From an uncultured Enterobacteriaceae bacterium (GTDB taxonomy: Bacteria > Pseudomonadota > Gammaproteobacteria > Methylohalomonadales > Methylohalomonadaceae), in the NCBI GenBank assembly GCA_964522485.1, contig CAZFUS010000008.1, forward strand, positions 15,042 to 47,041: a DNA stretch of 32,000 nucleotides, given 5' to 3'. Shown piece by piece: positions 5,629 to 31,644 of the stretch; position 1 is the stretch's first letter; each line of letters opens with the position of its first letter. The notes under the pieces were generated by a model, which worked only from the letters and a program-made list of their open reading frames with translations, did no database searches and was not told the DNA's origin. The translations under genes and the position numbers were made by a program.

Positions 5629-5710
5629 ATCGGATGACTGAAATCGGGATCATGAAATGCAACGAACTGCTGCCGGCCTGGGGGTTATCCGGACAATTTC
5701 TGAAAACACA

Positions 5711-5739: not shown

Positions 5740-5761
5740 TGATATTAAATGGCTGGCCATG

Positions 5762-7969
<2,208 letters not shown>

Positions 7970-8819: not shown

Positions 8820-9952
8820 TTTCCCTTTTGTCTAAGGCGGAGAGGATCATAAAAAGGCGGCTTAAATACCGTCGCTTCACTGGTAAAATCGCCGCCATGC
8901 ACCTCTACCGACGTGCCTGGTGCGGAAAATTCGGGCTTGATATGAATAAGTGCAAGAGACTGCATTAAATACCGGCTGTAAACGGGTGTCGTGACAAGTC
9001 CCACCTCCTTGCCATCCTTGATTAACTTTGCCCCCTCGGGAGCTGCTTTATCACTCCTGCAGACGATTCCTGTCTGCAGAAATCTCTCTTTCCCTTTCTT
9101 TTGTTGCAAGGCTTTTTTTCCACGGAAATCGTCTCTTTCGACCTCGATTCCCCAGGACATACCATTCAAGTCTACGGCCCATGACATACCCAGTTCCCAT
9201 GGCGTGACATCGCCCTCAGGCATATCAAAAGGATAAAACAGGAGACCGGCCTCAACCCGGCAAAGATCCAGACAGGTGAACGAACAGGGCATTATGCCGA
9301 ACTCGGCACCTTCATCTAATATGGTGTCCCATAACTCGACAGCGTCATCGCTGGAGCAGAAAATCTCGTAGCCACGCTCGTGCGAATACCCTGCTCTGGA
9401 AATCAAAACATCTTTACCGAACAGCTTGCTCTTTTTATGATGAAAGTAAGGAAGTTCAGACAGTTCAATACTTGTATGGGGCGAGAGCAGATTTAACACC
9501 TGCGGACCTTGTACTGACAATATATGCACATCAGCATCCCTGGATATTGTTACATTCTTCCCTTTTGAATATTCTTCCAGGACCTCTTCGGCATCACCGT
9601 CACCATGGGTGGCTCGATACTGATTCTGATCATCACAGTAGACCAGGAAATCATCCGTAATGGCTCCTTCTTTATTGCACAGACATCCCAGTCTTGACTG
9701 TCCCGGCTTAAGCACTGACATGTCCGCTGCCTGCATGGCATTGATGACTTCAAGCGCATCTGGTCCAGTGATATTGATAACCTGCAGACAGGTAACATCC
9801 CACAGACCGACGCGTGACCTTACCGCGACATGCTCATCATCAGGATTTGTGTTATAAAGCCAGGGCACTCCCATATTCCATAACGGCTCCTCAAAACTGG
9901 CGCCAAGCTCTTTATGCCTGCTGTACAGAGCGTTATGTCTTAATTCAGTCAT
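8816..9952 (-). CDS. Aminomethyltransferase (GcvT) family folate-binding protein, a putative THF-dependent C1-capturing or demethylase component
   Basis: The 378-aa product starts at ATG 9950-9952 with a GGGAG SD 6 nt upstream. It has GcvT-like architecture: LYSRHKELGASF..., HVAVRSRVGLWDVTCLQVINITGPDALEVIN..., KPGQSRLGCLCNKEGAITDDFLVY. The ORF-track TTG 9973 start is less likely. Confidence 0.8.
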   Translation of the reverse strand: MTELRHNALYSRHKELGASFEEPLWNMGVPWLYNTNPDDEHVAVRSRVGLWDVTCLQVINITGPDALEVINAMQAADMSVLKPGQSRLGCLCNKEGAITDDFLVYCDDQNQYRATHGDGDAEEVLEEYSKGKNVTISRDADVHILSVQGPQVLNLLSPHTSIELSELPYFHHKKSKLFGKDVLISRAGYSHERGYEIFCSSDDAVELWDTILDEGAEFGIMPCSFTCLDLCRVEAGLLFYPFDMPEGDVTPWELGMSWAVDLNGMSWGIEVERDDFRGKKALQQKKGKERFLQTGIVCRSDKAAPEGAKLIKDGKEVGLVTTPVYSRYLMQSLALIHIKPEFSAPGTSVEVHGGDFTSEATVFKPPFYDPLRLRQKGK

Positions 9953-10071
9953 TGCCTGCTCCCGATATTTCAACTATATGCGCTTGATACCAAGACTTTT
10001 TCGGAAAAAGTCAAATAAAATTCAGGGCCCTATTTCAGGATTTTCAATCATGTACTCATGCCCCGAAGAGC

Positions 10072-10360: not shown

Positions 10361-11602
10361 ATGCCTTTGGGTTTAATTAAATATGGGCTTTCCAAAAAAT
10401 ATCCTGCTCGACGGGACATACCGCCGAATAAGGACCTGAAGAATTCCTACGACGTAGTTATTATCGGCGCTGGCGGCCACGGCGCATCGATTGCATACCA
10501 TCTTGCCCGTTATCAGGGCATTACGAATGTTGCGGTTCTTGATAAAGGTTATCTGGGTGGTGGCAACACAGCACGGAATACAGCAGTCATTCGTTCCAAC
10601 TACATAACCCCGGACTCAGTCAACTTCTACAAGGAATCCGTTGAGTTATACAAACAGCTGTCGAATGAGCTGGGTTATAACATGCTTTATTCACAGCGTG
10701 GACAGCTGACCCTCGCACATTCTGATGCAAGCATGCGCACATTCAGATTACGCGCTGAAGTCAACAAGCATTGTGGCGTGCGCTCAGAAATGGTTGATCG
10801 GGATCAAATAAGAGAAATCGTCCCTTGCCTTAACCTTGACAGGCATGCTCGTTTCCCGATTATCGGTGGCCTGTGGCACCGGGACGGTGGCACTGCCCGT
10901 CACGACTCCGTTGCCTGGGGATACGCCATGCGTGCCTCACAGCTGGGCGTAGAATTCCATCAGCGAACCGAAGTAACAGGTATCCAGAAGGCCAATGGGC
11001 GGGTAACAGCAATCGACACCAATCGCGGCACTATCCACTGCAAGGATGCAGTACAAGCAGTTGCCGGAATGAGCAGTGTGATCGCCAGAATGGCCGGAAT
11101 AAGACTGCCGATCAGAACCTTTCCTCTACAGGCTATGGTAACGCAACCGCTGAAACCGTTCATCGACCCGCTGGTCAGTTCTGCTGCGTTGCATTGCTAT
11201 ATATCACAGACAGCCCGGGGCGAGATTGTTATTGGTGGAGGATCTGATCCTTATGACCTTTATTCGACACGCTCGACGCTCGAACTCAAGGAGGGCCTGA
11301 TTGCACATATGCTGGAAATGTTTCCGTTTATGAGCGAAGTAAAGCTGCTTCGGCAATGGGCGGGCATGACGGACATGACTCCGGACTACAGTCCGATCAT
11401 GGGAGAAAGCCCGTTACAAAATTACTGGCTGGATGCCGGATGGGGTACCTGGGGTTTCAAAGCCACCCCCGTAGCAGGCAAACGTATGGCTGAAACTGTA
11501 GCCACCGGCAGGGTGCCTGATCAAATCAAGCCATTCAGTCTCGCAAGATTTGCGACTTACCAATTATCTAACGAAGCCGGAGCTACGGCGGCGAGTCACT
11601 AA
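10361..11602 (+). CDS. soxB: Sarcosine oxidase beta-subunit family flavoprotein (heterotetrameric SoxBDAG type), in this context likely N-methylglutamate dehydrogenase subunit MgdA
   Basis: The 413-aa product has an N-terminal dinucleotide fold (YDVVIIGAGGHGASIAYHLA) and the motifs GGGNTARNTAVIRSNY and GGLWHRDGGTARHD, the last being the region of the covalent-FMN histidine in SoxB. A GAGGGAG SD lies upstream. It is followed by delta, alpha and gamma genes. Confidence 0.9.
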   Translation: MPLGLIKYGLSKKYPARRDIPPNKDLKNSYDVVIIGAGGHGASIAYHLARYQGITNVAVLDKGYLGGGNTARNTAVIRSNYITPDSVNFYKESVELYKQLSNELGYNMLYSQRGQLTLAHSDASMRTFRLRAEVNKHCGVRSEMVDRDQIREIVPCLNLDRHARFPIIGGLWHRDGGTARHDSVAWGYAMRASQLGVEFHQRTEVTGIQKANGRVTAIDTNRGTIHCKDAVQAVAGMSSVIARMAGIRLPIRTFPLQAMVTQPLKPFIDPLVSSAALHCYISQTARGEIVIGGGSDPYDLYSTRSTLELKEGLIAHMLEMFPFMSEVKLLRQWAGMTDMTPDYSPIMGESPLQNYWLDAGWGTWGFKATPVAGKRMAETVATGRVPDQIKPFSLARFATYQLSNEAGATAASH

Positions 11603-11620
11603 ACAGCAGGAGTTTTCTGC

Positions 11621-11920
11621 ATGAAGATTATGCATTGCCCACTGAATGGTCCACGCAATATATCGGAATTTGCATCAGGCGGAGAAGTTACTCAGATGCC
11701 GGAACCATCTGAAACTGACGATCAGGCCTGGGCCGAGTACATATGGATGCACAATAACACTGCGGGAGTTGTAACTGAATGGTGGTGCCATGTACCCACC
11801 TCTTACTGGTTCCTTGCCGAACGCAACACGGTTACTGACGAGATTCTTCGCACTTATCCCGCCAATGAGAGATACAGGGAACGCATAACCTTCGCAGCGG
11901 GTCCGGAGAAGAAAAAATGA
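11621..11920 (+). CDS. soxD: Sarcosine oxidase delta-subunit family protein (MgdB-like)
   Basis: The 99-aa product starts MKIMHCPLNGPRNISEF..., which resembles the zinc-ribbon-like SoxD N-terminus. An AGGAG SD lies 8 nt upstream. Its stop overlaps the next start as ATGA. Confidence 0.85.
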   Translation: MKIMHCPLNGPRNISEFASGGEVTQMPEPSETDDQAWAEYIWMHNNTAGVVTEWWCHVPTSYWFLAERNTVTDEILRTYPANERYRERITFAAGPEKKK

Positions 11921-14865
11921 ATGGTATTGACAATACCAGCTCTTCCGGTACCGAACGCGGGACCAACACGCAATCCCGCAATGGCCTGTTTATTGATTCT
12001 TCTAAAATTATTGAGTTTTATTTTGAAGGACGAAAATACCAGGGGCATGAAGGCGATACCATAGCCAGTGCTTTAGCGGCTAATGGTGTCTGGCTGCTGG
12101 CCCGATCATTTAAATATCACCGTCCCAGAGGAATACGTTCTCTTGCAGGACTTGAAGCCGATCCTCTGGTGCAGCTTGAATATGAGCCGAATGTTCAGGC
12201 AGACAGTTATCCAATCTCGTCCGGCATTGAAATATATGGACAAAATTACAGCGGCAGTCTCGAAAATGATCGGCTGGCCATTATGGGTCTGTTCAGCCGC
12301 TTTATGCCTGTCGGTTTCTATTACAAGGCATTCTTCCGCCCCAAAGGCATCTGGCAGAAATTCTGGGAACCCTTAGTCAGGCGCAGTGCCGGACTCGGCA
12401 AGGTCAATCTGAAAACGCCACACGGTTACTATGACAAAAGCTACAGCTTTTACGACGTAGTGGTTATAGGAGCAGGACCAGCCGGCCTGTCCTCTGCAAT
12501 TGCCGCCGCGCGGGCCGGAGCCGAGGTGTTGCTAATTGAACGGGAAAGGAAAATCGGCGGTTCGCTTAATTATTTTCGCTTTGATGTGAACAATAAAATG
12601 GCGGCTAAAATCCGCGACGAACTTCTCAGCGAGCTGGACAGCCTGCCGAATATCGAAGTAATGACCGAGGCCAATTGCAATGCATGGTATGCGGATAACT
12701 GGCTGCCGATCATCAAGGAAAACCGCCTTTACAAAACCCGTGCAAAGGAAGTCATCCTTGCCACCGGTTCCATGGAACAGCCTGCTGTATTCAGGAACAA
12801 TGATCTGCCCGGTATTATGCTGGGTTCCGGTGCGCAGCGCCTTTTGAACCTCTATGGCGTCAAACCGGGAAAACGGGCTGTAATTCTTACCTGCAATTCC
12901 CACGGTTATGGCGTTGCGCTCGATTTACATGATGCAGGCGTAGACGTTGCTGCCATTATTGATATGCGAGTTGATATAGCGGAAGACGAATTTACCGAAG
13001 CGGCCAGAAGCAGCGGCATCAGAATTGAGAAGAACTCGACCGTCAGTGAAGCAATTCCAATATCCAGAAACAAACATATCAAGGGCGTCCGCGTAGCGCC
13101 CATTACCGGTCAGGGTAAATATGGTCAAAACAGCAGCGAAATTGACTGCGATCTCCTGTGCATGAGTATCGGCTATACACCGGCTTACCAGTTAGCCCTG
13201 CAGGCCGGAGGACAGCTCGAATACGATGATGCTAACGCTATTTTCGAGATTACCGGCACGCCAGCTCATCTTCGGCTGGCAGGTTCAACAGATGGGATTT
13301 ACGAGCTGAACGCTGTCAGGATCAGTGGCCAGCATGCCGGATGGCAGGCTGCAACCGCTTTAGCCCTTGAAGCCGGCGACGAACCCCGACTGCCGGCTGA
13401 AAAGGGGCAACAGGGCATCAATCATCCATGGCCGATATTTCCCCATCCCAAGGGCAAGGAATTTGTGGATCTGGATGAAGATCTTCATTACGCCGATATC
13501 GTGAACGCCTGTGCAGACGGATATGCAGAGCTCGAACTGGTCAAGCGCTATTCCACGGTTGGCATGGGTCCGTCCCAGGGTCGTCATTCCGCCCTGAGCA
13601 CGGCCAGAATTGTAGCCATGGCAACCAACAGAAGTGTTTCTGAAACCGGCGTTACTACTGCACGCCCGCCCCTCGCTGCTGAGAAGCTCGGTGTACTGGC
13701 GGGCAGGTCTTTTGAACCTGAGCGATTAACGGCAATACATCACCGGCATATGGAATCCGACGCTACCATGATGAATGTTGGTTTATGGTGGCGCCCGGCC
13801 TATTACGGTAGCAGCCAGCACAAGGCAGACTGCATTCAAAATGAAGTCCTGACCATCCGCAATAATGTCGGACTGATTGATGTTTCCACCCTGGGCAAAA
13901 TCAGGATTCGTGGCAGCGATGCTGCCGAGTTCCTCAACCGTATGTACACATTCGCTTATTTAAAGCAGCCGATCGGACGCGCCCGCTACTTATTGATGAC
14001 AAATGAGGCAGGCACAATAACGGATGACGGTGTGGCCGTACGCCTGTCAGATGACAGCTTTTATATAACGGCAACCACTGGCGGTGTTGATAACGTCTAC
14101 CGGGCCATGCTCTGGTGGAATGCCCAGTGGCGCCTTGATGTTGATATAACCAATGTGACAGCGGCCTATGCAGGCGTCAATATTGCCGGCCCCGGCTCCC
14201 GTGAGGTTCTGGAGAAGCTCTGTCCTGACATCGACTTATCAGCGCAGGCCTTTCCCGCCAATGAAGCGCGAACCGGCACGGTAGCTGACATACCTGCATA
14301 TCTTATACGCGTGGCCTTTGTTGGTGAGCTTGGCTATGAAATTCATGTACATGCCTCACAGGGGGAGGCACTCTGGGATAACCTGCTGGAGGCTGGCAAG
14401 TCACACGATATCAAGCCTGTCGGCATTGAAGCGCAGCGAAATCTGAGGATGGAGAAAGGCCATATTATTGTCGGCCAGGACACCGATGCCATGACTTATC
14501 CCGAGGAATGCGGCATGGGCTGGGCTGTAAAGTTCGATAAGCCTTTTTTTGTTGGAAAACGCTCACTTGAAATCCGCGCCAGATATCCCTCAAAACGCAA
14601 GCTGGTCGGCTTTGAAATCAAAGACAAGTCGATCGATATGCCGGAGGAATCAAACATTGTACTTCATGGCAATACCATTACGGGTCATGTGACATCAGTT
14701 GCCCGCTCTCCAGTACTGGATAAAGTCATCGGTATGGCCTATGCCAGATCAGACACAGAACCAGGTGACACTATTACCATAAAACTGACCAATGGCCAGA
14801 TAATTAATGCCGGTGTCGTCTCTATGCCCTTTTACGATCCGGAAAACAAACGCCAGGAGATGTAA
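11917..14865 (+). CDS. soxA: Sarcosine oxidase alpha-subunit family protein (MgdC-like) with a folate-binding GcvT-like C-terminal half
   Basis: The 982-aa product carries GDTIASALAANGVWLLARSFKYHRPRGI, a dinucleotide motif [14 protein letters not shown], and a C-terminal aminomethyltransferase-like region (LIDVSTLGKIRIRGSDAAEFLNRMY...). Confidence 0.9.
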   Translation: MNGIDNTSSSGTERGTNTQSRNGLFIDSSKIIEFYFEGRKYQGHEGDTIASALAANGVWLLARSFKYHRPRGIRSLAGLEADPLVQLEYEPNVQADSYPISSGIEIYGQNYSGSLENDRLAIMGLFSRFMPVGFYYKAFFRPKGIWQKFWEPLVRRSAGLGKVNLKTPHGYYDKSYSFYDVVVIGAGPAGLSSAIAAARAGAEVLLIERERKIGGSLNYFRFDVNNKMAAKIRDELLSELDSLPNIEVMTEANCNAWYADNWLPIIKENRLYKTRAKEVILATGSMEQPAVFRNNDLPGIMLGSGAQRLLNLYGVKPGKRAVILTCNSHGYGVALDLHDAGVDVAAIIDMRVDIAEDEFTEAARSSGIRIEKNSTVSEAIPISRNKHIKGVRVAPITGQGKYGQNSSEIDCDLLCMSIGYTPAYQLALQAGGQLEYDDANAIFEITGTPAHLRLAGSTDGIYELNAVRISGQHAGWQAATALALEAGDEPRLPAEKGQQGINHPWPIFPHPKGKEFVDLDEDLHYADIVNACADGYAELELVKRYSTVGMGPSQGRHSALSTARIVAMATNRSVSETGVTTARPPLAAEKLGVLAGRSFEPERLTAIHHRHMESDATMMNVGLWWRPAYYGSSQHKADCIQNEVLTIRNNVGLIDVSTLGKIRIRGSDAAEFLNRMYTFAYLKQPIGRARYLLMTNEAGTITDDGVAVRLSDDSFYITATTGGVDNVYRAMLWWNAQWRLDVDITNVTAAYAGVNIAGPGSREVLEKLCPDIDLSAQAFPANEARTGTVADIPAYLIRVAFVGELGYEIHVHASQGEALWDNLLEAGKSHDIKPVGIEAQRNLRMEKGHIIVGQDTDAMTYPEECGMGWAVKFDKPFFVGKRSLEIRARYPSKRKLVGFEIKDKSIDMPEESNIVLHGNTITGHVTSVARSPVLDKVIGMAYARSDTEPGDTITIKLTNGQIINAGVVSMPFYDPENKRQEM

Positions 14866-14869
14866 GCGC

Positions 14870-15583
14870 ATGTCGGAGAATCTTGCACAGCCCGCTGATT
14901 TCAAAGTCCGCAGTTTTCATTACCGAACACTGCTGGCCGACGGTGCCCACTTTACTGAATTTTCCGGTTGCGCAATAGCGTCCGGCTACGGAGCCTCCAT
15001 TGAAGAAGAGTCCGCCCAGGCCAGGGAACTCGGTCTTGCTGATCTGTCACCACTGCCAAGAACCGGTTTCAAAGGCCGCCGGGCACTTGAATGGCTGAAA
15101 CAGGCAGACCTGCAGATGGGTGATGACAACAACTTCTCATGGCTTCAGGACAGTGGTTCCATAGTAGCCAGACTTGCCAATACAGAAGCACTCATTTTGA
15201 GTGATCTGGCTAACAATTCAGGCATTTGTGCCCAGCTTGATAACAGAGTGACCAAAGAAAAACCCGAATCCTGTTATCACGTTCCCCGGCGTGAATCATC
15301 TGCATGGTTTCTGGTTACCGGCACCTGTGCAGACATCATGTTTGCAAAAATATGCGGCGTTGACATGAGAAGAACCAAATTCCCCTCCGGCAGGGTTGCC
15401 CAGACTTCCATGGCGCGCATGAATGTCATCAGTATACGGAGCGATTTGGGAGACGTGCCCGCCTATCATCTTATTTTTGACAGTGCCTCGGCTGATTATC
15501 TGTGGCGAATGCTAAAAGATGCCATGACCGAATTTGGCGGCAAACCGGTTGGTTATGATGCGATAGCCGACATAATACGGTAA
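14870..15583 (+). CDS. soxG: Sarcosine oxidase gamma-subunit family protein (MgdD-like)
   Basis: The 237-aa product starts at ATG 14870 (MSENLAQPADFK...), 4 nt after the soxA stop, with an AGGAGA SD. Position and size fit SoxG. The ORF-track start at 14807 would overlap soxA by 59 nt. Confidence 0.8.
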   Translation: MSENLAQPADFKVRSFHYRTLLADGAHFTEFSGCAIASGYGASIEEESAQARELGLADLSPLPRTGFKGRRALEWLKQADLQMGDDNNFSWLQDSGSIVARLANTEALILSDLANNSGICAQLDNRVTKEKPESCYHVPRRESSAWFLVTGTCADIMFAKICGVDMRRTKFPSGRVAQTSMARMNVISIRSDLGDVPAYHLIFDSASADYLWRMLKDAMTEFGGKPVGYDAIADIIR

Positions 15584-21521: not shown

Positions 21522-22316
21522 ATGAATTCTTATAGCTACATAAAAGGCAGCAGCCCCCTGATCATAAGCATACCGCATAGCGGTACATATGTACCGGATG
21601 AAATTCTTCAACGCATGACAGCAGAAGCAAGAGTACTACCGGATACTGATTGGCATGTCGACAAGCTGTATGATTTTGCCGAGTCCATGGACGTTTCTAT
21701 AATAAAGGGAAACTACTCTAGGTATGTAATTGATCTGAACAGACCTCCTGATGATGCATCTTTATATCCCGGTATGGATACAACCGGTCTCTGTCCGGAA
21801 ACCCTTTTCAGTGGCAATCCCATCTACCGGGCCGGACAAACACCCGGATCAAAAGATGTCGCCAGACGAATCGAAAAAATATGGGCCCCCTATCACGAAT
21901 GTCTCAGTAAAATTATTCACGACAAAGTCGTCGATTATGGTTATGTGCTGCTGTACGAAGCACACTCCATCAAATCGGTGGTTCCGCGTCTTTTTGAAGG
22001 CAGATTGCCCGACCTGAATCTCGGCACGGCTGATGGCGCCAGTGTAGACTATGACCTGCAACAGAAACTGTACCAGATATGCAGCAGCAATGCCGATAAC
22101 TATACCAGCACGATTGACGGACGCTTCAAGGGGGGATATATAACCCGCTACTATGGACAACCAGACAGCGGCGTGCACGCCGTCCAGCTTGAATTGACTC
22201 AATGCAGCTATATGAATGAATGCTATCCGTACAATTACATGCCGGAAAATGCCATGAAAATACGTGGTATTCTGATCCGGCTGATACGCTGTATGCTGGA
22301 ATGGCGGCCGTCCTGA
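21522..22316 (+). CDS. N-formylglutamate amidohydrolase (HutG/FGase) family protein
   Basis: The 264-aa product has N-terminal SPLIISIPHSGTYVPDE and downstream motifs DTDWHVDKLY, SRYVIDLNR, LYEAHS and VQLELTQ, all characteristic of the FGase family. Confidence 0.8.
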   Translation: MNSYSYIKGSSPLIISIPHSGTYVPDEILQRMTAEARVLPDTDWHVDKLYDFAESMDVSIIKGNYSRYVIDLNRPPDDASLYPGMDTTGLCPETLFSGNPIYRAGQTPGSKDVARRIEKIWAPYHECLSKIIHDKVVDYGYVLLYEAHSIKSVVPRLFEGRLPDLNLGTADGASVDYDLQQKLYQICSSNADNYTSTIDGRFKGGYITRYYGQPDSGVHAVQLELTQCSYMNECYPYNYMPENAMKIRGILIRLIRCMLEWRPS

Positions 22317-22327
22317 AGCAGTACCAG

Positions 22328-22555
22328 ATGATGAACACTCAGGACTCAGCCATGCCGGGGTCTCCACCTCATACACTGCTTGATAAAGCCAGGCAGATGG
22401 CAGATCTCAAGGGCAAATCGGTATATTTATATAAAGAAGGGGACAACTGGTGTCTTGGTGAATCCCTGGGCATGATATCTGACTGTAGCAGGATCCTGGA
22501 AGTCAAGCCCCGTACCGATGAAGACAGCGAAACGGACAACTTTGGAGGTTGCTGA
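22328..22555 (+). CDS. Hypothetical small protein (75 aa), doubtful
   Basis: This is an open frame only, starting at ATGATG after the FGase stop. It has no recognisable motif and no clear SD. Confidence 0.25.
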   Translation: MMNTQDSAMPGSPPHTLLDKARQMADLKGKSVYLYKEGDNWCLGESLGMISDCSRILEVKPRTDEDSETDNFGGC

Positions 22556-22572
22556 AAACAGCATCAATCACC

Positions 22573-22770
22573 ATGAAATCTACTAATCGACAGGAGAAGA
22601 ATCGCAACACAGCTTCCGTAAGGCTGACAGATGACGATGTCTATATGATCATGATGTTACATCAGAATCAGAATATGAGCAGCAGAGACATCGCCAGGAA
22701 ATTCGGCATCAGTACCGCCCGGGTACGTGATATCGTGGCCAGACGGGTCGGCGGCAGCTGTTGCGGCTGA
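22573..22770 (+). CDS. Small putative helix-turn-helix DNA-binding protein (65 aa)
   Basis: The segment MSSRDIARKFGISTARVRDIVARR looks like a classical HTH of the resolvase or sigma-70-region-4 type. The stop lies only 6 nt from the convergent GFA stop, so the coding status is uncertain. Confidence 0.4.
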   Translation: MKSTNRQEKNRNTASVRLTDDDVYMIMMLHQNQNMSSRDIARKFGISTARVRDIVARRVGGSCCG

Positions 22771-22776: not shown

Positions 22777-23190
22777 TCAGTCGTTCCCGATATCGGTGCT
22801 GTCCAGGCCTTGCTGCTTTTTCGGCAAATCATCCATTAACTTGTAATAATCACCCGCAAAGTTCACATGGATATGGCACCGTGTCTGCAGCCCCGTCGGT
22901 TCCGTGAGCGAACCCGCAGCTATTCTCAACAAATCGGAGTCCAGCCGGTCCCAGAACAGACTGCTGCCGCATTCGCGGCAGAAGCCGCGTCTGGCCTGAG
23001 AAGATGAGCTATACCAGTTCAGAGCCCCTCGGCCGTCATCGATCTCAACGGCGTCACGACGGGCTGCCGTGTAAGCGGCATAATGACCATGGAATCGTCG
23101 GCATTGCCGACAATGACAGTTGACAATATCACGCAGGACTGTATTGACAGTGTATGTAACTGCTCCGCACAGGCACTGCCCCCTCTGCAT
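22777..23190 (-). CDS. GFA (glutathione-dependent formaldehyde-activating enzyme / CENP-V) family zinc protein
   Basis: The 137-aa product starts at ATG 23190 (MQRGQCLCGAVTY...). Its Cys pattern CxC...CHCxxCRR...CxxCG is typical of the GFA domain. The ORF-track start at 23226 adds 12 residues with no support. Confidence 0.8.
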   Translation of the reverse strand: MQRGQCLCGAVTYTVNTVLRDIVNCHCRQCRRFHGHYAAYTAARRDAVEIDDGRGALNWYSSSSQARRGFCRECGSSLFWDRLDSDLLRIAAGSLTEPTGLQTRCHIHVNFAGDYYKLMDDLPKKQQGLDSTDIGND

Positions 23191-23262
23191 GATTACTGAC
23201 TGATTCCTCTCAAACCCGGCCACCATGCATGCGTATCGGCAACGAATACAGGCACAGCAGGA

Positions 23263-23886
23263 TCACGATGGCTCAGGCTCGGCAACTGCCAGTGTCCAGT
23301 CAGGCTTGAATGCAACCACCTGTACGCCTGGCGGCATAAAAGGATTAAAGAGCTGATTATGCCAGTAGGTTGCCTGGTATAGATAACTGTCTGCGTCCAG
23401 ATTGATCACTTCACACGGTAGTGAAAAATACTGGCGCGTCTGATTGAATTCCAGCGTGCAAGTGCCCTGCTTTTCAAGATAATTAACCAGCGGTTCATCC
23501 GGCCCGAATAATGCAGTAAGCTGATCGGTAAATTCTCTCTTGTCCTGGTAATATTCAGCGGCGAGAAATTCCAGTCCGCTGTCGTAGCGCTTTTTCGGGT
23601 CCTGGGTGCGCCGGACCATGTGCCTGAACTCCGGCACTGTTGAACAGTGTTCATGCTTGTTGATCAGAACAATAATCTGAATCAACGTGCTCTTATCAAC
23701 AACAACGCCTGGGCACATGGACTCTGAAGGCTTGCCTGCATTCCTGCGCACGGCATTCTGTCTGGCCTTGCATTGCCATTTCAGAAAATGCTCACGTAAA
23801 GCCAATGCGGCCGTTTGATGGCGCACAACATTCTGGTGATTACCGTCAGTCACGTTTGTACTGCTGCCCTCTGTCGCCGGCATCAT
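23263..23886 (-). CDS. Hypothetical protein (207 aa) co-oriented with the NMG operon
   Basis: The long ORF starts ATGATG 10 nt after the upstream stop. I recognise no family. A notable segment is LREHFLKWQCKARQNAVRRNAGKPSESMCPGVVV. Confidence 0.5.
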   Translation of the reverse strand: MMPATEGSSTNVTDGNHQNVVRHQTAALALREHFLKWQCKARQNAVRRNAGKPSESMCPGVVVDKSTLIQIIVLINKHEHCSTVPEFRHMVRRTQDPKKRYDSGLEFLAAEYYQDKREFTDQLTALFGPDEPLVNYLEKQGTCTLEFNQTRQYFSLPCEVINLDADSYLYQATYWHNQLFNPFMPPGVQVVAFKPDWTLAVAEPEPS

Positions 23887-23896
23887 GTGAAATTAC

Positions 23897-24286
23897 TCAA
23901 AATTTCGCATAGGCCTTTTTCAGATCCACCAGCGGATGATCCGGCGACATCTGGAACTTCACCAGCAGCTCACGGGCAATCATGTCACGGTCCTGCTGAT
24001 TGTCAGGCAATTTAATGTCCCCCGGCACCTGCACCCAGCCGTTGATATTCCGGTCGAAAACCGCGGGTTTGCCTTCCTCATAACCCATGTGAACGTCCTC
24101 CAACCAGTTCAGGTCCTGCCAGTCCATGATTTCCATGTATTTCTCGAGAAACGGGGTGACACGGTTCATATCCGGCACCAGATTCACATCATAGCGATAG
24201 CCAATATGCTGCCCGATTAATTTTTCACGTTCTGTATCGACACCTGTACTTGTAACGTAGTAATCAATGTCTTTTTCCTTACTCAT
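23897..24286 (-). CDS. Hypothetical acidic protein (129 aa) immediately downstream of mgsC
   Basis: The ORF starts 31 nt after the mgsC stop with an AGAGAG-type SD. It has no Cys and no motif that I recognise. Confidence 0.5.
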   Translation of the reverse strand: MSKEKDIDYYVTSTGVDTEREKLIGQHIGYRYDVNLVPDMNRVTPFLEKYMEIMDWQDLNWLEDVHMGYEEGKPAVFDRNINGWVQVPGDIKLPDNQQDRDMIARELLVKFQMSPDHPLVDLKKAYAKF

Positions 24287-24317
24287 GGCGATCTCTCTAT
24301 CAATAAACAGATATTGA

Positions 24318-25706
24318 TTAATAGCGGGTCATATCGGGGCGACCGACCGTGTGCTGTGAACCCGCCATCGGCACCTGTGCCATGGAAGACGCCTCCATAG
24401 TCAAGGCTGCCAAATCTTCCGGTTCCAGTGAATGCACGTTGGTTTTTGCACAAGCCCTGGCAAACAGCTGACACTCAATAGCAAGCGTATGCAGGAAATT
24501 ATAGACACGCTCCGCAGCCTCATCCGGATGCAGACGTTTGCGCAGCTGTGGATCCTGGGTGGTAACGCCGACCGGGCAGCGACCGGTATGGCAATGGTAA
24601 CAATAGCCTGCCTCGACCCCCATTTCCTTCGGAAAATCGGCTTCCGGAATATCCTTGTTGCAGTTCAGGGCAATGAGTGACGCATGGCCGATTGCTACCG
24701 CATCGGCACCCAGGGCAAGCGCCTTGGCCAGATCAGAGCCGTTACGAATGCCGCCCGCATAAATCAGGGAGATTTCCCCCGTTTTACCTACGTCATCAAG
24801 CGCCTTCCTGGCCTGACGTATGGCGGCAATACCAGGTACACCGGTATCTTCGGTGGCAAGGTGGGGGCCGGCACCGGTACCACCCTCCATACCGTCAATA
24901 TAAATACAGTCAGGATCACACTTGGCCGCCATACGGACGTCATCATAAACACGGGCCGCACCAAGTTTCAGCTGGATCGGGATCTCCCAATTGGTAGCTT
25001 CGCGTATTTCCTGAACCTTGAGAGCAAGATCGTCCGGACCGAGCCAGTCGGGATGGCGAGCCGGCGAACGCTGATCGATGCCTGCCGGCAGCGAACGCAT
25101 TTCAGCAACCTGATCGGTAACTTTCTGTCCCATGAGATGCCCGCCCATACCGACCTTGCAGCCCTGACCGATGAAGAACTCGATCGCATCAGCCAGGCGC
25201 GCATGATGCGGATTGAAGCCATAACGTGACTGGATCAGCTGATAAAACCATTTCTCAGAATAACGACGTTCATCCGGTATCATGCCTCCTTCACCGGAAC
25301 AGGTTGCCGTACCAGCCATCGTCGCACCACGGGCCAGGGCACACTTCGCCTCATAGCTCAGGGCGCCGAAGCTCATGCCGGTAATATACACCGGTATATC
25401 CAGCTCCAGCGGACGCTTGGCGCGCGGACCGAGGATCGTTTTTGTCTCACATTTTTCTCTATAACCCTCGATAACAAAGCGTGTCAAAGTACCAGGCAGA
25501 AAAGTCAGATCATCAAAATGCGGGATTTTCTTGAACAGGGAAAAGCCGCGCATCCGATACCGGCCAAGTTCAGCCTTGACGTGTATATCATCGATAACAC
25601 GCGGCTGGAAAATAAAACTGGAACCGAGAACATGACGGTTGCGCTCGGGTTTGGTTTCCGGCACTATTTCAGGTGCTGGTTCTGTTGCTGGATTTTGCTG
25701 TGACAT
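24318..25706 (-). CDS. mgsC: FMN-binding glutamate-synthase-family protein (GlxD / GltB FMN domain), N-methylglutamate synthase subunit C-like
   Basis: The product is about 462 aa. It has a GltS FMN-domain signature (MSFGALSYEAKCALARGA..., IDGMEGGTGAGP..., ISLIYAGGIRNGSDLAKALALGADAV). It follows the GATase and GXGXG genes. I prefer ATG 25706 over the ORF-track TTG 25715. Confidence 0.85.
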   Translation of the reverse strand: MSQQNPATEPAPEIVPETKPERNRHVLGSSFIFQPRVIDDIHVKAELGRYRMRGFSLFKKIPHFDDLTFLPGTLTRFVIEGYREKCETKTILGPRAKRPLELDIPVYITGMSFGALSYEAKCALARGATMAGTATCSGEGGMIPDERRYSEKWFYQLIQSRYGFNPHHARLADAIEFFIGQGCKVGMGGHLMGQKVTDQVAEMRSLPAGIDQRSPARHPDWLGPDDLALKVQEIREATNWEIPIQLKLGAARVYDDVRMAAKCDPDCIYIDGMEGGTGAGPHLATEDTGVPGIAAIRQARKALDDVGKTGEISLIYAGGIRNGSDLAKALALGADAVAIGHASLIALNCNKDIPEADFPKEMGVEAGYCYHCHTGRCPVGVTTQDPQLRKRLHPDEAAERVYNFLHTLAIECQLFARACAKTNVHSLEPEDLAALTMEASSMAQVPMAGSQHTVGRPDMTRY

Positions 25707-25763
25707 TTTATTCAAACCTCTCGTAAGACCTTTCTGGGCAACTCATGCGGGTACGCATACCGG

Positions 25764-26606
25764 TTAAAGAACCAGTTTCTTTTCGGTAGGCTCAAGATTG
25801 TCGTAATTCCAGAGTTTCTTGCCTGAAACAATCTTGCGCACATTTGCCACACCATTGGGCGCTTCCAGTCCGTATATTGAAAGCTTTTTCGTAAGCCACT
25901 GGATATCGATATCGGTCATCTCGCTTTCAACTGCATCAACACCCAGGCTTTCATACTTGCCGGCTATATAAATGGTGCCGTCATACATTGAATCGCCAAG
26001 GTTGGAACCTGCATCACCCAGAATGACCATCCTGCCGCGTTGCATCATAAAACCCGAATTCATACCGGTCCGGCCACCGATAATGATGGTGCCACCCTTC
26101 ATGTCAATTCCGGTACGGGAGCCGACGTCACCCTTGCATACCAGATCACCGCCCCGTATAGCCGCGCCAAAGGTTGAACCGGCATTTTTCTCTACCACTA
26201 CAGTGCCGGCCATCATGTTCTCGGCACATGACCAGCCAACACGTCCCTTGATGCGCACGTTCGGCCCATCGATCAATCCGCAGCCGAAATAGCCAAGGCT
26301 GCCGTCGAAAGTAAGATTCAGCCGGTTAAGAATGCAGACACCCATTGAATGTTTGGCCCCTGGATTCCTGATCGTTATGCTGCCGTAACCTTCCTTCATA
26401 AGCTCACGAAGCTTGATATTCACGTCCTTATTGCTCATGTCGGCAGCGTCGAACTCAGTTTCCTTGTTAAAATCGACTTCAAAAGCACCAGGGTAAGTAA
26501 AATTCTCCTCGGCTGCCGGTTTGAAGAATATCTGCTGTGTGCGTCCTGCCAGCTGCTCATCGTGCATTCCCATTGCATGGGAATCTCTGGATTCTAGCTG
26601 TGCCAT
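25764..26606 (-). CDS. mgsB: GXGXG-motif protein (GlxC / glutamate synthase alpha C-terminal domain-like), N-methylglutamate synthase subunit B-like
   Basis: The 280-aa product has repeated Gly-rich beta-helix motifs (GYFGCGLIDGPNVRIKGRVGWSCAENMMAGTVVV..., GDVGSRTGIDMKGGTIIIGG..., ILGDAGSNLGDSMYDGTIYIAG). It overlaps the mgsA stop by 13 nt. Confidence 0.85.
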   Translation of the reverse strand: MAQLESRDSHAMGMHDEQLAGRTQQIFFKPAAEENFTYPGAFEVDFNKETEFDAADMSNKDVNIKLRELMKEGYGSITIRNPGAKHSMGVCILNRLNLTFDGSLGYFGCGLIDGPNVRIKGRVGWSCAENMMAGTVVVEKNAGSTFGAAIRGGDLVCKGDVGSRTGIDMKGGTIIIGGRTGMNSGFMMQRGRMVILGDAGSNLGDSMYDGTIYIAGKYESLGVDAVESEMTDIDIQWLTKKLSIYGLEAPNGVANVRKIVSGKKLWNYDNLEPTEKKLVL

Positions 26607-27547
26607 ACTTTCACCGCTCCATCATAAGGATCATAGGTATCAATCTCATGGGGAAAGATACTTCTTATGGCAACCTCTTCGGATGCCAAGGCAATGAAGT
26701 CATCACTCTCATAGAGAACCATAGGTTTTGCAGCCATAGTGTCTTTCGCCATGCCCAGAGAATTGCTGGTCGCAACAAGATAGGTAAAAACGCCATCCAG
26801 ATCCGTTACCGAGTCATGCATCGCTTCTTCCAGCGTTTTTCCCTGATCGAGTTTGTCTGCAATGTAGACGGCTATCAGTTCGGAGTCGCAGTTGGAAGCA
26901 AAGCGATGTCCTTTACGCTCGAGGGCCCGGCGCTTGGTCCAGTAATTCGTCAACTGCCCATTGTGCACCACGGAAATATCACTGTACGGATATGCCCAGT
27001 AAGGATGGGCCGAACGGATATCAACATCAGATTCCGTGGCCATACGGGTATGCCCCATTGCATGCGTGCCCTGGAAGTCGCCCAGATCATATCCATCACT
27101 GACGGTCTTGGCATCACCGAGGTCCTTGATTAATTCAAGTGCACGTCCCATGGAGAGAATTTCCACTCCCTCCAGATCCTCGAGATAGTCGGCGAGCTTT
27201 CCGAGATCACCGTCATATTCAATAGTATACCTAAAGGCATATTCTTTAGGTTGATCAATGTTTACTATTTTACCGTCCAGCTCTTTTATACGTGTCTCAA
27301 CGTCTTCCTTACGCTGTATGATCAGATCATGAATGCCCCATGCGCCCTTTTTGCTATGCGTCGACTCAACATCCGCACCCTCGGCTACTTTCAGGCGTAT
27401 GATATACTGCTTCGGATTTCCCTGACCATAAAGTGCATAGCCGGTTGAGTCTGGCCCTCTATGTTTTAATGCCTGTAGCATTAAGGCCATTTCCTTACCA
27501 ATACCAGCACTTTTGCCTTTATGAATAAGTCCTGCTATTCCACACAT
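26594..27547 (-). CDS. mgsA: Class II (Ntn) glutamine amidotransferase-family protein (GlxB-like), N-methylglutamate synthase subunit A-like
   Basis: The 317-aa product begins MCGIAG, with the catalytic Cys directly after Met. GHTRMATES and VVHNGQLTNY motifs are present. A GGAGGA SD lies upstream. Confidence 0.85.
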   Translation of the reverse strand: MCGIAGLIHKGKSAGIGKEMALMLQALKHRGPDSTGYALYGQGNPKQYIIRLKVAEGADVESTHSKKGAWGIHDLIIQRKEDVETRIKELDGKIVNIDQPKEYAFRYTIEYDGDLGKLADYLEDLEGVEILSMGRALELIKDLGDAKTVSDGYDLGDFQGTHAMGHTRMATESDVDIRSAHPYWAYPYSDISVVHNGQLTNYWTKRRALERKGHRFASNCDSELIAVYIADKLDQGKTLEEAMHDSVTDLDGVFTYLVATSNSLGMAKDTMAAKPMVLYESDDFIALASEEVAIRSIFPHEIDTYDPYDGAVKVWHS

Positions 27548-27564: not shown

Positions 27565-29034
27565 TTACGGCAGGCAATCCATGTATTGCTCTAGATCCCA
27601 TTCCGTTACCGTTGCCAGAAAGGTTTCCCATTCGTCACGTTTATAGTCATCAAAAACCTTGTACAGTTCTCCCGGCAGCGCTGATTTGACAGTTTCATCC
27701 TGTTCCAGAGCATCGAGCGCTTCTCCAAGTGAAATCGGGATCCTGGTATATTTTTCCTTAACCTCTTCCATTACATCATAAATATTACGCTGCTCAGGCT
27801 CTCCCGGATCCGCCTTCTCATTAATGCCTTCGCTCATCGTTTTCAGAAGGCCAGCACCGAGCAGATAAGGATTGTTGGCAGAATCAACCGTCTTATATTC
27901 GAAGCGTCCCGGCGCTGAATTGCGAACACCGGCGGTGCGGTTTTGATACCCCCAGTTGGCGTATACCGGCGCCCAGTAACCGGTATCAAGAAGACGGCGA
28001 TAGGAATTAACATTGGAACAGCCCAGAACAGTCAGGCCGCGTAAATGCTTCAGAATACCGCCCAGAGCATATTTACCGATTTTCCCCGGTTCACGCGGAT
28101 TATCACCTTCCGGCATAAAAGTATTATCACCCTCTAAGGCATAGGTGAAAACAGCCTCCATGCCTGGCAGATCAGTGTTGCCCAGCTGCTTTACCTCGGT
28201 TTTGCCACCGCGCCAAAGGGAGATATTGGTATGACATGCAGAAGCGGAAACATGCATGAACGGCTTTGACATGAAACAGGCAATAAGATTGTATTCACGT
28301 GCCACCTGGGCACAGATCTGGCGATAGGTCGTCAACCGATCAGAGTTCCGCAAAATATCATCAAATGTGAAATTCAGTTCCAGTTGTCCAGGCGCATCTT
28401 CATGATCACCCTGAATAATGTCCAGCCCCATCTGCCGGGAATATTCGATAACCTGCATATAAACCGGCCGTAGCGATTCGAACTGATCGATGTGATAGCA
28501 GAACGGCTTGCTATAACCACCGGCAGGTTTGCCATCTTCACCCCGCTTCAGCCACATCATTTCCGGCTCGGTACCTGCACGTAGTTGCAGACCATGCTCA
28601 TCCTGGAATTCCTGGTGTATGCGGCGCAGATTGCCGCGGCAGTCGGAGTCAAGAAATGCACCGGGATTGTCCGGATGCTCGCGGCCTCGAAACAATGTAC
28701 AGAAAACACGTGCCACGCGCTTATCCCAGGGCAGCTGAACAAAGGTTTCAGGCTCCGGAATACCAACCAGCTCCCAGGCTTCGGGGCCATAACCAAGATA
28801 GTGACCATGCCTGTCTATAAACAGATTGGCTGTCGAGCCATAAACAAGCTGAAAACCCTTTTCGGCAAAGCGCTCCCAGTGATCGGCTGGAGCACCCTTG
28901 CCCATAATGCGTCCGGTTACGGATACAAACTGAAAATAGATGTAATTAACGCCCAGAGTATTAATTTTCTTGCGAACTTCCTGGACCTTTTTATCCCGAC
29001 CAGGCGTATTGATAAAGTTCTCATAGTCAGTCAT
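27565..29034 (-). CDS. gmaS: Glutamine-synthetase-family ligase (GlnT/type III-like), likely gamma-glutamylmethylamide synthetase
   Basis: The 489-aa product has a GS catalytic-domain layout (...TEPEMMW..., GDHEDAPGQLELNF, MSKPF...SASACHTNISLW, NSYRRL, NRTAGVR). It lies directly upstream of mgsABC, the arrangement known for NMG-pathway clusters. An AGGGGA SD lies upstream. Confidence 0.8.
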   Translation of the reverse strand: MTDYENFINTPGRDKKVQEVRKKINTLGVNYIYFQFVSVTGRIMGKGAPADHWERFAEKGFQLVYGSTANLFIDRHGHYLGYGPEAWELVGIPEPETFVQLPWDKRVARVFCTLFRGREHPDNPGAFLDSDCRGNLRRIHQEFQDEHGLQLRAGTEPEMMWLKRGEDGKPAGGYSKPFCYHIDQFESLRPVYMQVIEYSRQMGLDIIQGDHEDAPGQLELNFTFDDILRNSDRLTTYRQICAQVAREYNLIACFMSKPFMHVSASACHTNISLWRGGKTEVKQLGNTDLPGMEAVFTYALEGDNTFMPEGDNPREPGKIGKYALGGILKHLRGLTVLGCSNVNSYRRLLDTGYWAPVYANWGYQNRTAGVRNSAPGRFEYKTVDSANNPYLLGAGLLKTMSEGINEKADPGEPEQRNIYDVMEEVKEKYTRIPISLGEALDALEQDETVKSALPGELYKVFDDYKRDEWETFLATVTEWDLEQYMDCLP

Positions 29035-29106: not shown

Positions 29107-30450
29107 CTAGCTCCAAGGGAAGGGACTATGAGACGTGGGGTGCAGTCTCCCTTCCTTGTAACGCGAGAAGCGAAATGGTTCGAGCAACTCACTGGTCTTG
29201 CCCAATACTTCCTGAGCCACAAGTTCACCAACACCAATCATTTTGTAACCATGATTGGAATCGGCAATGATGTAACAGTTTTCGCGAAAAACATCGAACA
29301 ATGGGAAATTGTCCGGCGAGAAAGCTCCTATGCCGCCTGATGGCTCTTTCTTGTATGAAGGAAACTTGTCTTCAAACCGCTTCTGACAATGTGCCAGAGC
29401 CGAGCACCACATATTGGCGAAGTCTTCACCGACAATATAATCCGGTGACTCGGTTCCATAGGGATCAATTCGCACTTTATCCGGATCCGTTTTGACTTCA
29501 AACGGAGCGGATCCACCCTGGATACCACCGAAATAGGGGTCCGGCTTATAATAAATTCCCCATATTTTATCTGTAACAAGAGAGCCATCCTTGACGGAAT
29601 ACAAAGGTGCGTCCGTATCAACATGCACTACAGGAGGCAACTTTCCGTCATTAGTTCTTTGTAAGTCAGGATCCACACCCAGTGTGCCTTCCTGCAGCGA
29701 CCAGAAGACCCACATGGGAACATCTTTGTGAATTTTTCCCTGCAGATCCTTGACCTCAATCTTCTTGGGAAGCTCCAGCATATCCCATATCGGTTTGATC
29801 CATGGGCCTGCACCGACGATGACGTAATCACATTCAATAACACCTTTATCGGTTTCCACTGCTTTAACGGTCTTGCTGCCATCTGCAGATTTAAAGCCGG
29901 TGACCTTGATACCCGTTTCAATGTTTACGCCTTCATTACGCGCCTTATCCGCCAGGCCATGCATGCTTTTAATGTTATTGGCATAACCTCCACGTTTTTC
30001 ATGCAGCACTGATGTTATGTTCTTTGCCTGCCAGTCGTCGAATATGTTACGCATGTATTTCATTGACTCTTTTTCGCCTTCAATGAAAACAGACTCATAT
30101 CCAATTTCCTGCTGCTGTTTGGCAATGCTGGCCACATCTTCACGCATTACCTCGCAGCTAATCTGCAGATAGCCAACGGAATGATAAGTGTATGCCTCCG
30201 GATCCCTTTCCCAGACTCCTACACTATGCGCCATAAGCTTGCGCATTGCCGGTTGATAATAATTATTTCTTACTACTCCGCAAGCTATGCCGGAAGCGCC
30301 TGCACCAATATCCTTTTTGTCAACAACCAGAATATCCTTGCCGTCACCTAGCTTGCGCTCCTTTAACTGCCTGGCAAGATGATACGCTGTGCTGAGCCCA
30401 TGCACACCTGCGCCGATAACCAGGTACTTTGTATGACTGGGAAGCCCCAT
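29107..30450 (-). CDS. FAD-dependent oxidoreductase (DAO family; monomeric SoxB-like amine oxidase/dehydrogenase)
   Basis: The 447-aa product has the N-terminal motif KYLVIGAGVHGLSTAYHLA. GASGIACGVVRNNY parallels the GGGNTARNTAVIRSNY motif of the soxB product in this window. It is the first gene of the gmaS-mgs operon. Confidence 0.8.
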   Translation of the reverse strand: MGLPSHTKYLVIGAGVHGLSTAYHLARQLKERKLGDGKDILVVDKKDIGAGASGIACGVVRNNYYQPAMRKLMAHSVGVWERDPEAYTYHSVGYLQISCEVMREDVASIAKQQQEIGYESVFIEGEKESMKYMRNIFDDWQAKNITSVLHEKRGGYANNIKSMHGLADKARNEGVNIETGIKVTGFKSADGSKTVKAVETDKGVIECDYVIVGAGPWIKPIWDMLELPKKIEVKDLQGKIHKDVPMWVFWSLQEGTLGVDPDLQRTNDGKLPPVVHVDTDAPLYSVKDGSLVTDKIWGIYYKPDPYFGGIQGGSAPFEVKTDPDKVRIDPYGTESPDYIVGEDFANMWCSALAHCQKRFEDKFPSYKKEPSGGIGAFSPDNFPLFDVFRENCYIIADSNHGYKMIGVGELVAQEVLGKTSELLEPFRFSRYKEGRLHPTSHSPFPWS

Positions 30451-30620: not shown

Positions 30621-30828
30621 TTCTGCGGGGTCTTGTCTGGCTCTATTCTGTTATAGACAAGAAGTACAATTTTACCCGGTTGAACGGTCCGGAAATCAAC
30701 GGGATGCGAAAACAGGATTTTATAAAGAGCGGCATCCCCCGTCGCCTGATGCATAACCGAATATATTCCATGACGCCGGACAGCCGTCCCCGGCTGATGT
30801 ACCCATGCTAGAAAGAGGAAATGGCAGA

Positions 30829-31644
30829 ATGAATTATCCCGCAACACTCACCAGTCAGATCTCGGATGTTCAGAGAGAAGATGACATGCGCAACATCGCG
30901 ATCGACAAGGTAGGGATTAAGGATATCAATCATCCTGTAGTGATTATGGGCCACATGAACAGGGAGCAGCATACCGTAGCCAATTTCAATATGTATGTCA
31001 GCCTGCCGCATAATTTCAAAGGCACACACATGTCTCGATTCGTAGAGATACTGAATAATCACGAATACGAAATTACAGTTGAATCCTTCAAACTCATGCT
31101 CAGAGAAATGACCGATATGCTGGATTCCGATTCCGGTCATATAGAAATGTCATTCCCCTATTTCGTGGAAAAATTCGCGCCCGTGACCGGCGTCAAGAGT
31201 CTGCTGGACTACCGCGTGTCCTTTATTGCCGATATGCATAATGGTGGCGAGCCTTTAATGAAAATCAAGATTATTGTTCCCGTCACCACATTATGTCCAT
31301 GTGCAAAAAAAATCTCTGACTACGGCGCTCACAACCAGCGATCACATGTCACCTTGCATGTCGTGTTAAATACGGCGATCTGGATTGAAGAATTAATTGA
31401 TATGATTGAAAATTCCGCATCATGCGAACTCTACAGTCTACTGAAACGCACAGACGAGAAATATGTTACGGAGTACGCGTATAACAATCCAAAATTCGTC
31501 GAAGATATAGTTCGAGATATAGCAGTCAAGTTGAACAAAGACCTGCGCATTTCCGGGTACAGCGTGGAGTCTGAAAATTTCGAATCAATACACAATCATT
31601 CCGCATATGCAATGGTAACGAAAGATTACCATATACCAACATAA
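30829..31644 (+). CDS. folE2: GTP cyclohydrolase I type 2 (FolE2 / GCYH-IB, MptA family)
   Basis: [25 protein letters not shown], the KGTHMSRF motif and the C-terminal [12 protein letters not shown] are characteristic of FolE2. I prefer ATG 30829, which has GAGG about 10 nt upstream, over ATG 30805. Confidence 0.85.

Follow-up and report, generated by a model that had tools for sequence, protein, structure and literature searches.

A small conserved gene of no described family is the fifth cistron of a paralogue of the N-methylglutamate synthase operon

The stretch of DNA analysed here (32,000 nucleotides, hereafter the window) corresponds to positions 15,042 to 47,041 of contig CAZFUS010000008.1, assembly GCA_964522485.1, and belongs to an uncultured bacterium of the Gammaproteobacteria. 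Its minus strand features a string of genes related to those of the N-methylglutamate (NMG) pathway, which ends with two open reading frames (ORFs), orf129 and orf207, the subject of this report. The first gene of the string encodes a sarcosine-oxidase-beta-like FAD oxidoreductase of 447 aa (29107-30450). It is followed by genes encoding a 489-aa ligase resembling glutamine synthetase (GS), with a Gln-synt_C domain (27565-29034), a MgsA-like class-II amidotransferase subunit of the N-terminal nucleophile (Ntn) type, with Cys1 (26594-27547), a MgsB-like GXGXG subunit (25764-26606), the gene of which shares 13 nt with the mgsA-like gene, and a MgsC-like flavin mononucleotide (FMN) subunit (24318-25715), which has a Glu_synthase domain according to Pfam and terminates with a TAA stop codon at 24318-24320. 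A spacer of 31 nt (24287-24317), in which the sequence GAGAGA is found 7–12 nt before the next ATG, separates the mgsC-like gene from orf129 (23897-24286; 129 aa), the fifth cistron of the operon. Next is orf207 (23263-23886; 207 aa), the product of which features an N-terminal helix and a predicted PNPOx-like split beta-barrel. A further cistron, located 36 nt past orf207, encodes a member of the glutathione-dependent formaldehyde-activating enzyme-like (GFA) family (22777-23226; PF04828, 5.7e-21). All comparisons described below are of sequences, alignments, gene neighbourhoods and predicted structures, and gene functions are deduced from these.

The positions of the two ORFs, the 31-nt spacer and the 10-nt gap between the orf129 stop and the orf207 start had been reported in an earlier, model-made reading of the same DNA (the original prediction), in which the GFA gene was not mentioned, and were reproduced from the sequence. 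In that reading the short gaps were viewed as a sign of co-transcription with a gmaS-mgsABC operon. Gaps of this size are compatible with co-transcription, and terminator-like sites are absent from the mgsC-orf129-orf207-GFA gaps, as all those predicted on the minus strand fall within coding sequences. The orf129 product had been described as acidic and Cys-free, and it is both (pI 4.8).

In a scan of one genome per GTDB species at least 595 relatives were identified, and the best 80 loci were fetched. The addition of 80 metagenome loci anchored on orf207 brought the total to 120 orf129 copies. Single loci are denoted below by L numbers.

The four genes preceding orf129 had been assigned to the described gmaS-mgsABC operon. 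The window module does comprise, on three subunits, a class-II amidotransferase (Cys1), a GXGXG protein and an FMN-type Glu_synthase domain. The assignment is nevertheless contradicted by the low identity to the set carried by the Paracoccus aminophilus plasmid pAMI6 (GmaS 30%, MgsA 32%, MgsB 39%, MgsC 53%), by the TIGR03105 score of the GS-like protein (272 bits versus a cut-off of 470, P. aminophilus GmaS scoring 642 bits), and by the matches to solved GmaS structures. The window protein matches 7cql and 9qur at about 1e-50, and its matches to true glutamine synthetases are at least as good; Paracoccus GmaS matches the two structures at 8e-178 and 9e-98, respectively. By these comparisons the window ligase, named gmaS in the original prediction, is not orthologous to the characterised GmaS. 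The operon is a deep paralogue, referred to hereafter as set 1, and not the characterised gmaS-mgsABC. Set 1 and a canonical set lie next to each other within single loci (L048, L113), and the two are thus paralogues with separate identities. The canonical module, as found in Methyloversatilis universalis FAM5, Methylobacterium extorquens DM4 and pAMI6, is made by the same four protein types, and its genes are likewise linked to mgd, a heterotetrameric sarcosine-oxidase-like operon, and to genes for methylated amines. In contrast to canonical proteins, all four set-1 proteins are longer, by 22–55 residues, and carry specific insertions, and neither orf129 nor orf207 accompanies the canonical module.

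The gene orf129 is found directly 3' of set-1 mgsC, with the same orientation, in 77/80 genome loci; in the remaining three a contig end is at most about 370 nt away from it. When all 120 copies are considered, 101 directly follow set-1 mgsC, 18 are at contig ends, and one is located elsewhere. The order mgsC-orf129 is thus conserved in 101/102 testable copies; the median spacing between the two genes is about 15 nt. Linkage to genes of glutamate-mediated methylamine utilization, the lack of which was among the outcomes that the original prediction had named as fatal to its proposal, is found for both ORFs, and is near absolute for orf129.

The same gene is missing where the canonical set occurs alone. 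No plasmid out of the 72,556 recorded in PLSDB carries orf129 according to tblastn, and 475 of them carry a mgsC homologue of the canonical type, each less than 60% identical to the window MgsC. No orf129 was found in the 19-kb stretch of P. aminophilus pAMI6 examined (L081). The NMG cluster of FAM5 is made by eight genes with consecutive locus tags, and nothing is inserted between mgsC and mgdA; in DM4, mgsABC-gmaS alone suffice for the production of N-methylglutamate in P. putida. Such ORFs are absent from the characterised canonical clusters, and no description of extra ORFs in NMG clusters, or of a fourth NMG synthase subunit ("mgsD"), was found in the literature. Tied to set-1 mgsC and absent where only the canonical set is present, orf129 is a component that defines set 1, and set 1 only.

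A third paralogous set of amidotransferase, GXGXG and FMN genes resides near set 1 in L045, L060 and L115 (38–43% identity). Its MgsC features the motif C-x2-C-x2-C-x4-C; in L045 and L115, orf129 could not be detected 3' of the third-type mgsC (38–40% identity). In two marine contigs (L164, L165) the gene for formate-tetrahydrofolate ligase (FTHFS) is found directly 3' of orf129.

Homologues of orf129 make up at least 8000 clusters, and the matches listed share 75–100% identity. Across Alpha-, Beta- and Gammaproteobacteria the identity to the window copy ranges from 73 to 97%, and orf129 ranks second in conservation among the products of the operon, behind MgsC (81–97% across the fetched loci). 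In an alignment of 52 sequences from Alpha- and Gammaproteobacteria, 55 of the 129 columns are invariant. Invariant polar or charged residues include E21, H27, R31, D33, N35, D58, N60, E63, D64, H66, E70, R79, N80, D95, Q97, Q98, R100, D101, R105 and E106. The ratio of non-synonymous to synonymous substitution (dN/dS) is 0.03 relative to the nearest DNA homologue (L082); in remoter homologues synonymous sites are saturated, and non-synonymous divergence does not exceed 0.17. The orf129 gene is a real gene, kept under purifying selection.

No family had been recognised for either ORF product, and searches of Pfam, NCBIfam and PDB sequences gave no consistent assignment for either. Pfam and NCBIfam scans of orf129 gave no match, the best hit below threshold being HypF_C (E 0.055), and nothing consistent emerged when every member of the family alignment was scanned at E up to 5. 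The only match of the orf129 profile among PDB sequences is an unrelated Toxoplasma protein, at chance level (E 0.008). An exhaustive HMMER profile search of 1.84 billion representatives retrieved 302 matches, all of which belong to the same family, either as full-length members or as fragments. No remote relative or informative fusion was found among the 302, and the longer matches contain no Pfam domain, except for one apparent chimera which carries an ADH_N fragment. The AlphaFold2 (AF2) model is of moderate quality (pLDDT 77), and combines one helix with a sheet of three strands and a further two helices at the C-terminus. Its comparison to PDB by Foldseek revealed no structural neighbour (best E 0.77). 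The orf129 family is uncharacterised, and falls outside any described family or fold. Residues 24-34 have pLDDT values below 50 in the isolated model, though the stretch 20-36 shows little or no variation. A segment which is invariant, yet predicted to be disordered in the isolated protein, fits the pattern of a partner-binding segment.

Set-1 and canonical MgsC differ also at one conserved site. Residues 352-381 of the window MgsC-like protein include C352 and the motif C372-x2-C375-x4-C380-P. Three set-1 cysteines align with the 3Fe-4S ligands of GOGAT in GltB (7mfm, 2vdc), and the cluster motif is flanked by a fourth Cys and by an insertion of 17 residues. The sequence C-[YH]-H-C-H-[TS]-G-R-C-P is found in 102/102 set-1 MgsC proteins. 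In the four canonical-type sequences examined, these cysteines are absent, and the same site reads Y-D-D-W-[HQ]-[ED]-G-x-D-P. Since the ligand cysteines are kept in set 1 and absent from these four canonical proteins, set 1 probably carries a Fe-S cluster lost from canonical NMG synthase. GltB resembles set 1 in having amidotransferase, FMN and GXGXG domains, which correspond to the three set-1 proteins. In contrast to GltB, the set-1 counterparts are distributed over three polypeptides, and lack the central domain. Neither a GltB central domain nor a GltD-type NAD(P)H subunit was found in any window ORF scanned. No similarity of orf129 to GltB was detected at E up to 10, and on these grounds its origin as a detached fragment of the GltB central domain was dismissed. 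That the Fe-S cluster accounts for the existence of orf129 is made less plausible by the Cys-bearing third-type mgsC genes of L045 and L115, which are not accompanied by orf129.

A gene cluster resembling set 1 may be found in Candidatus Pelagibacter ubique HTCC1062. Genes SAR11_1304-1309 are annotated, in this order, as monomeric sarcosine oxidase, glnT, two further genes, gltB2 and a hypothetical protein. The latter (SAR11_1309) is located between gltB2 (SAR11_1308) and amt (SAR11_1310). The best SAR11 matches of the FAM5 NMG synthase proteins are encoded by glxBCD-glnT (SAR11_1313-1316), and not by the neighbouring glnT...gltB2 genes (SAR11_1305-1308), which by gene order look like set 1. 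Over 29 arrays, the microarray signal of SAR11_1309 closely follows that of SAR11_1308 (r = 0.95); correlations are 0.78–0.89 with SAR11_1305-1307, 0.59 with amt, and -0.46 with SAR11_1304. The latter gene is strongly induced by nitrogen limitation, and the window FAD oxidoreductase may correspond to it. SAR11_1309 is, as a lead only, a candidate homologue of orf129; the two marine homologues looked up (L164, L165) do not come from SAR11. No described function for SAR11_1304-1309 was found in the literature.

The second ORF differs from orf129 in many respects. Homologues of orf207 amount to 69 in a single-sequence search, and to 1236 clusters in a profile search; all are annotated as hypothetical, and none contains a Pfam domain. 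The gene is real and under purifying selection (dN/dS 0.15–0.17). Its product contains five Cys. A basic N-terminal segment had been noticed in orf207, and this proved to be the best conserved part of the family (F34, W37, Q38, C39, R42, Q43, R47, G51, P53). The motif F-L-x-W-Q-C-[RK]-x-R-Q is located in the N-terminal helix, which measures 35 residues. The HEHC motif, also pointed out in the original prediction, is not conserved in the family alignment; a metal-binding or catalytic role was rejected, as the motif varies freely across the family.

The AF2 model of orf207 is confident (mean pLDDT 91.7); in it, a beta-barrel with helices comes after the N-terminal helix. The best 50 Foldseek matches of orf207 are all split-barrel proteins of the PNPOx-like superfamily, which bind FMN, FAD, F420 or heme (probability 1.0, E 4e-4 to 1e-2). 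The TM-score is only about 0.4 by query, rising to 0.6 by target. The predicted fold of residues ~55-205 resembles that of Rv2074, 3db0, 2i02 and general stress protein 26. In contrast to these proteins, orf207 features the additional 35-residue N-terminal helix, and is not related to them at the sequence level. No match to Pfam was found for 64 family members at E up to 5, and none to PDB sequences for the orf207 profile at E up to 10.

Both ORFs had been viewed as welded to the 3' end of the operon. This is correct for orf129, the position of which is nearly invariant, and not for orf207, which is found 3' of orf129 and on the same strand, as in the window, in 14/120 copies only. In the same tally, orf207 is convergent with orf129 in 33/120, divergent from a mgdA-like gene in 17/120, and adjoins a GFA gene in 7/120 (7/80 of the orf207-anchored metagenome loci). 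It follows a mgdD-like gene in 5/120, and a canonical-type gmaS in 3/120. A pathway gene is found at 5 kb or less from orf207 in 35 of the 41 orf207-anchored metagenome loci which have flanks of at least 2 kb. Being close to pathway genes, but shifting in position and strand, orf207 is best viewed as an accessory member of the regulon, rather than as a synthase subunit.

The reading that we favour, with even chances when its parts are taken together, is that set 1 is a separate, strongly conserved paralogue, that orf129 is a subunit or adaptor of it, and orf207 a split-barrel accessory protein. Within it, the reality, conservation and synteny of the genes, the paralogy and the Cys motif are established, the orf207 fold is predicted, and contact of orf129 with a partner, flavin binding by orf207 and methylamine as the substrate are deduced. 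The glutamate-mediated module would be made by the GS-like ligase, the Ntn amidotransferase, the GXGXG protein, the Fe-S/FMN subunit and orf129. The latter would be a co-transcribed fifth component, most likely a small stoichiometric subunit or an adaptor. The near-total conservation of its surface, the unstructured invariant segment, the terminal place in the operon and the co-occurrence with set 1 all favour such a role. The likeliest partner of orf129 would be the MgsC-like FMN/Fe-S subunit, as this is the adjacent and equally conserved product, and the invariant N-terminal segment, disordered in the isolated protein, may fold onto it. orf207 would be an accessory protein of the same regulon, and, as its predicted fold suggests, probably a binder of flavin or of a related cofactor. 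Encoded near mgs-like, mgd-like or GFA genes, it may provide redox or cofactor service to the flavoenzymes of the pathway. The original prediction that extra cistrons may be unrecognised components of the pathway is thus well supported in the case of orf129, and less firmly in that of orf207.

Several observations weigh against this reading. A second orf129 copy in L009 (15043-15420, 76% identity) follows an ABC-transporter ATPase gene, and is the only exception among the 102 testable copies. No fusion of orf129 to a partner is found among the 302 representatives, and the protein contact is a presumed one. The orf129 model is moderate and has no structural neighbour, and consequently nothing in it favours a subunit over an enzyme or a regulator. 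The split-barrel assignment of orf207 comes from the predicted structure, and sequence profiles lend no support to it. orf207 is found at 10 kb or less for only half of the set-1 operons. Finally, the NMG-type chemistry of set 1 is deduced from the gene context.

A more far-reaching possibility, which we put forward tentatively, is that orf129 marks a distinct and abundant five-component complex, Fe-S/FMN-dependent, GS-coupled and amine-assimilating, which is neither the known NMG synthase nor GOGAT. In such a complex the 15-kDa subunit, endowed with a new fold, would be indispensable, for example to dock an electron donor or to link ligase and synthase. The Fe-S site kept in set 1 points to a redox requirement which canonical NMG synthase does not share. 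The system occurs in no fewer than 595 GTDB species representatives and comprises 8000 or more protein clusters; SAR11_1305-1309 may also belong to it. Methylated amines are major sources of carbon and nitrogen in sea and soil, and their turnover is tracked by gmaS/mgsABC markers derived from a few model methylotrophs. Set 1 is widespread in Alpha-, Beta- and Gammaproteobacteria, often beside mgd-like genes or tdm, which encodes trimethylamine N-oxide (TMAO) demethylase, and its hallmark is a small protein that databases do not describe. If the five-component complex exists, surveys based on canonical gmaS/mgsABC may miss a substantial part of environmental methylamine turnover. If orf129 is required, reconstitution or heterologous expression of the four recognisable genes would fail, and orf129 would provide a clean one-gene marker for set 1.

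Synteny and set-1 specificity of orf129 would be the same if the protein acted transiently on the set-1 enzyme, either as an assembly or maturation chaperone, for example of the FMN/Fe-S subunit, or as a small regulator of the ligase or the amidotransferase. Other bacteria are known to possess small proteins which bind GS. The hypothesis fits with orf129 being the last gene of the core operon, and with the fact that set 1 departs from the canonical set in both the Fe-S cysteines and orf129. The protein, acidic and devoid of Cys, cannot hold a Fe-S cluster itself. However, the degree of invariance of orf129 (55/129 columns) exceeds the norm for chaperones or regulators, and the Cys-bearing third-type mgsC genes which lack orf129 (L045, L115) indicate that a Fe-S cluster alone does not require it. 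A transient role is accordingly viewed as unlikely.

It is quite improbable that orf129, and possibly orf207 as well, are small enzymes which catalyse an unrecognised step of the pathway, for example one acting on gamma-glutamylmethylamide, an imine intermediate or formaldehyde. Many of the invariant orf129 residues are polar or charged, as expected for an enzyme, and orf207, recurrently found beside GFA-family and mgd-like genes, has a predicted PNPOx-like fold, a type of fold mostly found in enzymes. Yet orf129 resembles no enzyme family or fold, its model consists of a small core made by a helix and three strands, preceded by a disordered N-terminus, and canonical NMG pathways run in the absence of both proteins.

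Least convincing, and very doubtful in our view, is the hypothesis that set 1 is not a NMG synthase but a redox-active, split GOGAT-type enzyme working with a GS-like ligase, in which orf129 docks an electron donor replacing GltD; for example, the FAD enzyme would oxidatively demethylate gamma-glutamylmethylamide to glutamine, which the Fe-S/FMN complex would convert to glutamate with 2-oxoglutarate. The 3Fe-4S ligands present in all 102 set-1 MgsC proteins, and lost in the four canonical-type ones, speak for it, as do the sarcosine-oxidase-beta-like FAD oxidoreductase gene which precedes the GS-like gene and heads the string in the window, in 30/80 loci and in the cultured Methylohalomonas lacus, the GcvT-like or tdm genes found nearby, and the position of the nitrogen-limitation-induced SAR11_1304 ahead of SAR11_1305-1309; but most set-1 loci lack the FAD oxidase, a GntR/FCD regulator being found upstream instead (in three of the loci checked, L001, L005 and L047, divergent and beside the GS-like gene), the mgd-like genes which adjoin set 1 in the window and in 16/80 loci imply a N-methylglutamate intermediate, and the electron donor is hypothetical.

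The genes surrounding set 1 fit with the favoured view of a methylamine pathway built on a paralogous synthase. Genes spanning 236-7966 (minus strand) encode alpha and beta subunits of an electron transfer flavoprotein, a LRV/HEAT-repeat protein, a DgcB-like Fer4+CCG Fe-S oxidoreductase and a 734-aa flavoprotein of the old yellow enzyme (OYE) type, a member of the TMADH/DMADH/DgcA family. They are predicted to form a demethylating dehydrogenase module, candidate substrates being trimethylamine, dimethylamine or dimethylglycine. An aminomethyltransferase gene of the GcvT type (385 aa) and a 249-aa ORF, which overlap, together occupy 8070-9973 on the same strand. The 249-aa ORF lacks Pfam domains, and shows only weak similarity to BenC-like reductases. 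The pair could capture formaldehyde on tetrahydrofolate for the neighbouring dehydrogenase. On the plus strand, a four-gene operon (10361-15583) encodes a heterotetrameric sarcosine-oxidase-like (mgd/sox-like) enzyme, made by beta (413 aa), delta (99 aa; 11621-11920), alpha (982 aa) and gamma (258 aa) subunits. Beta and alpha score below the Sox cut-offs of NCBIfam, and gamma has no NCBIfam match. The low scores are consistent with a NMG dehydrogenase, rather than a true sarcosine oxidase. The binding protein of an ABC transporter of the amide/branched-chain type in the window is 44% identical to one encoded beside Paracoccus gmaS. By its gene content, the window carries a methylated-amine catabolic island.

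In other set-1 loci, tdm (DUF1989 and GCV_T domains, ~786 aa) is found upstream of set 1 in both loci checked by Pfam (L010 and L036; ~1630-4180, minus strand), and comparable weak GcvT-like matches occur upstream in 26/80 loci. M. lacus has the same string as the window, with the FAD oxidase gene first, GFA last, and orf129 and orf207 in between, accompanied by a convergent N-formylglutamate deformylase gene and an adjacent ribBA gene; its GFA gene is located two genes downstream of orf207, past a 67-aa ORF. The methylated-amine neighbours, tdm and the M. lacus string support, and do not prove, methylamine as the substrate of set 1.

On the other side of the GFA gene, the window encodes a HutG-type N-formylglutamate deformylase, which passes the equivalog cut-off (21522-22316, plus strand), and two small ORFs on the same strand (region 22220-22770), one of which features a helix-turn-helix. 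HutG and the two ORFs converge on the GFA gene, and the same trio is found in M. lacus. The folate gene folE2 is present both in the window (30805-31644) and in M. lacus, where the riboflavin gene ribBA is located at 13090-14205 of L162. The presence of ribBA and folE2 nearby is consistent with a high demand of the pathway for flavin and folate.

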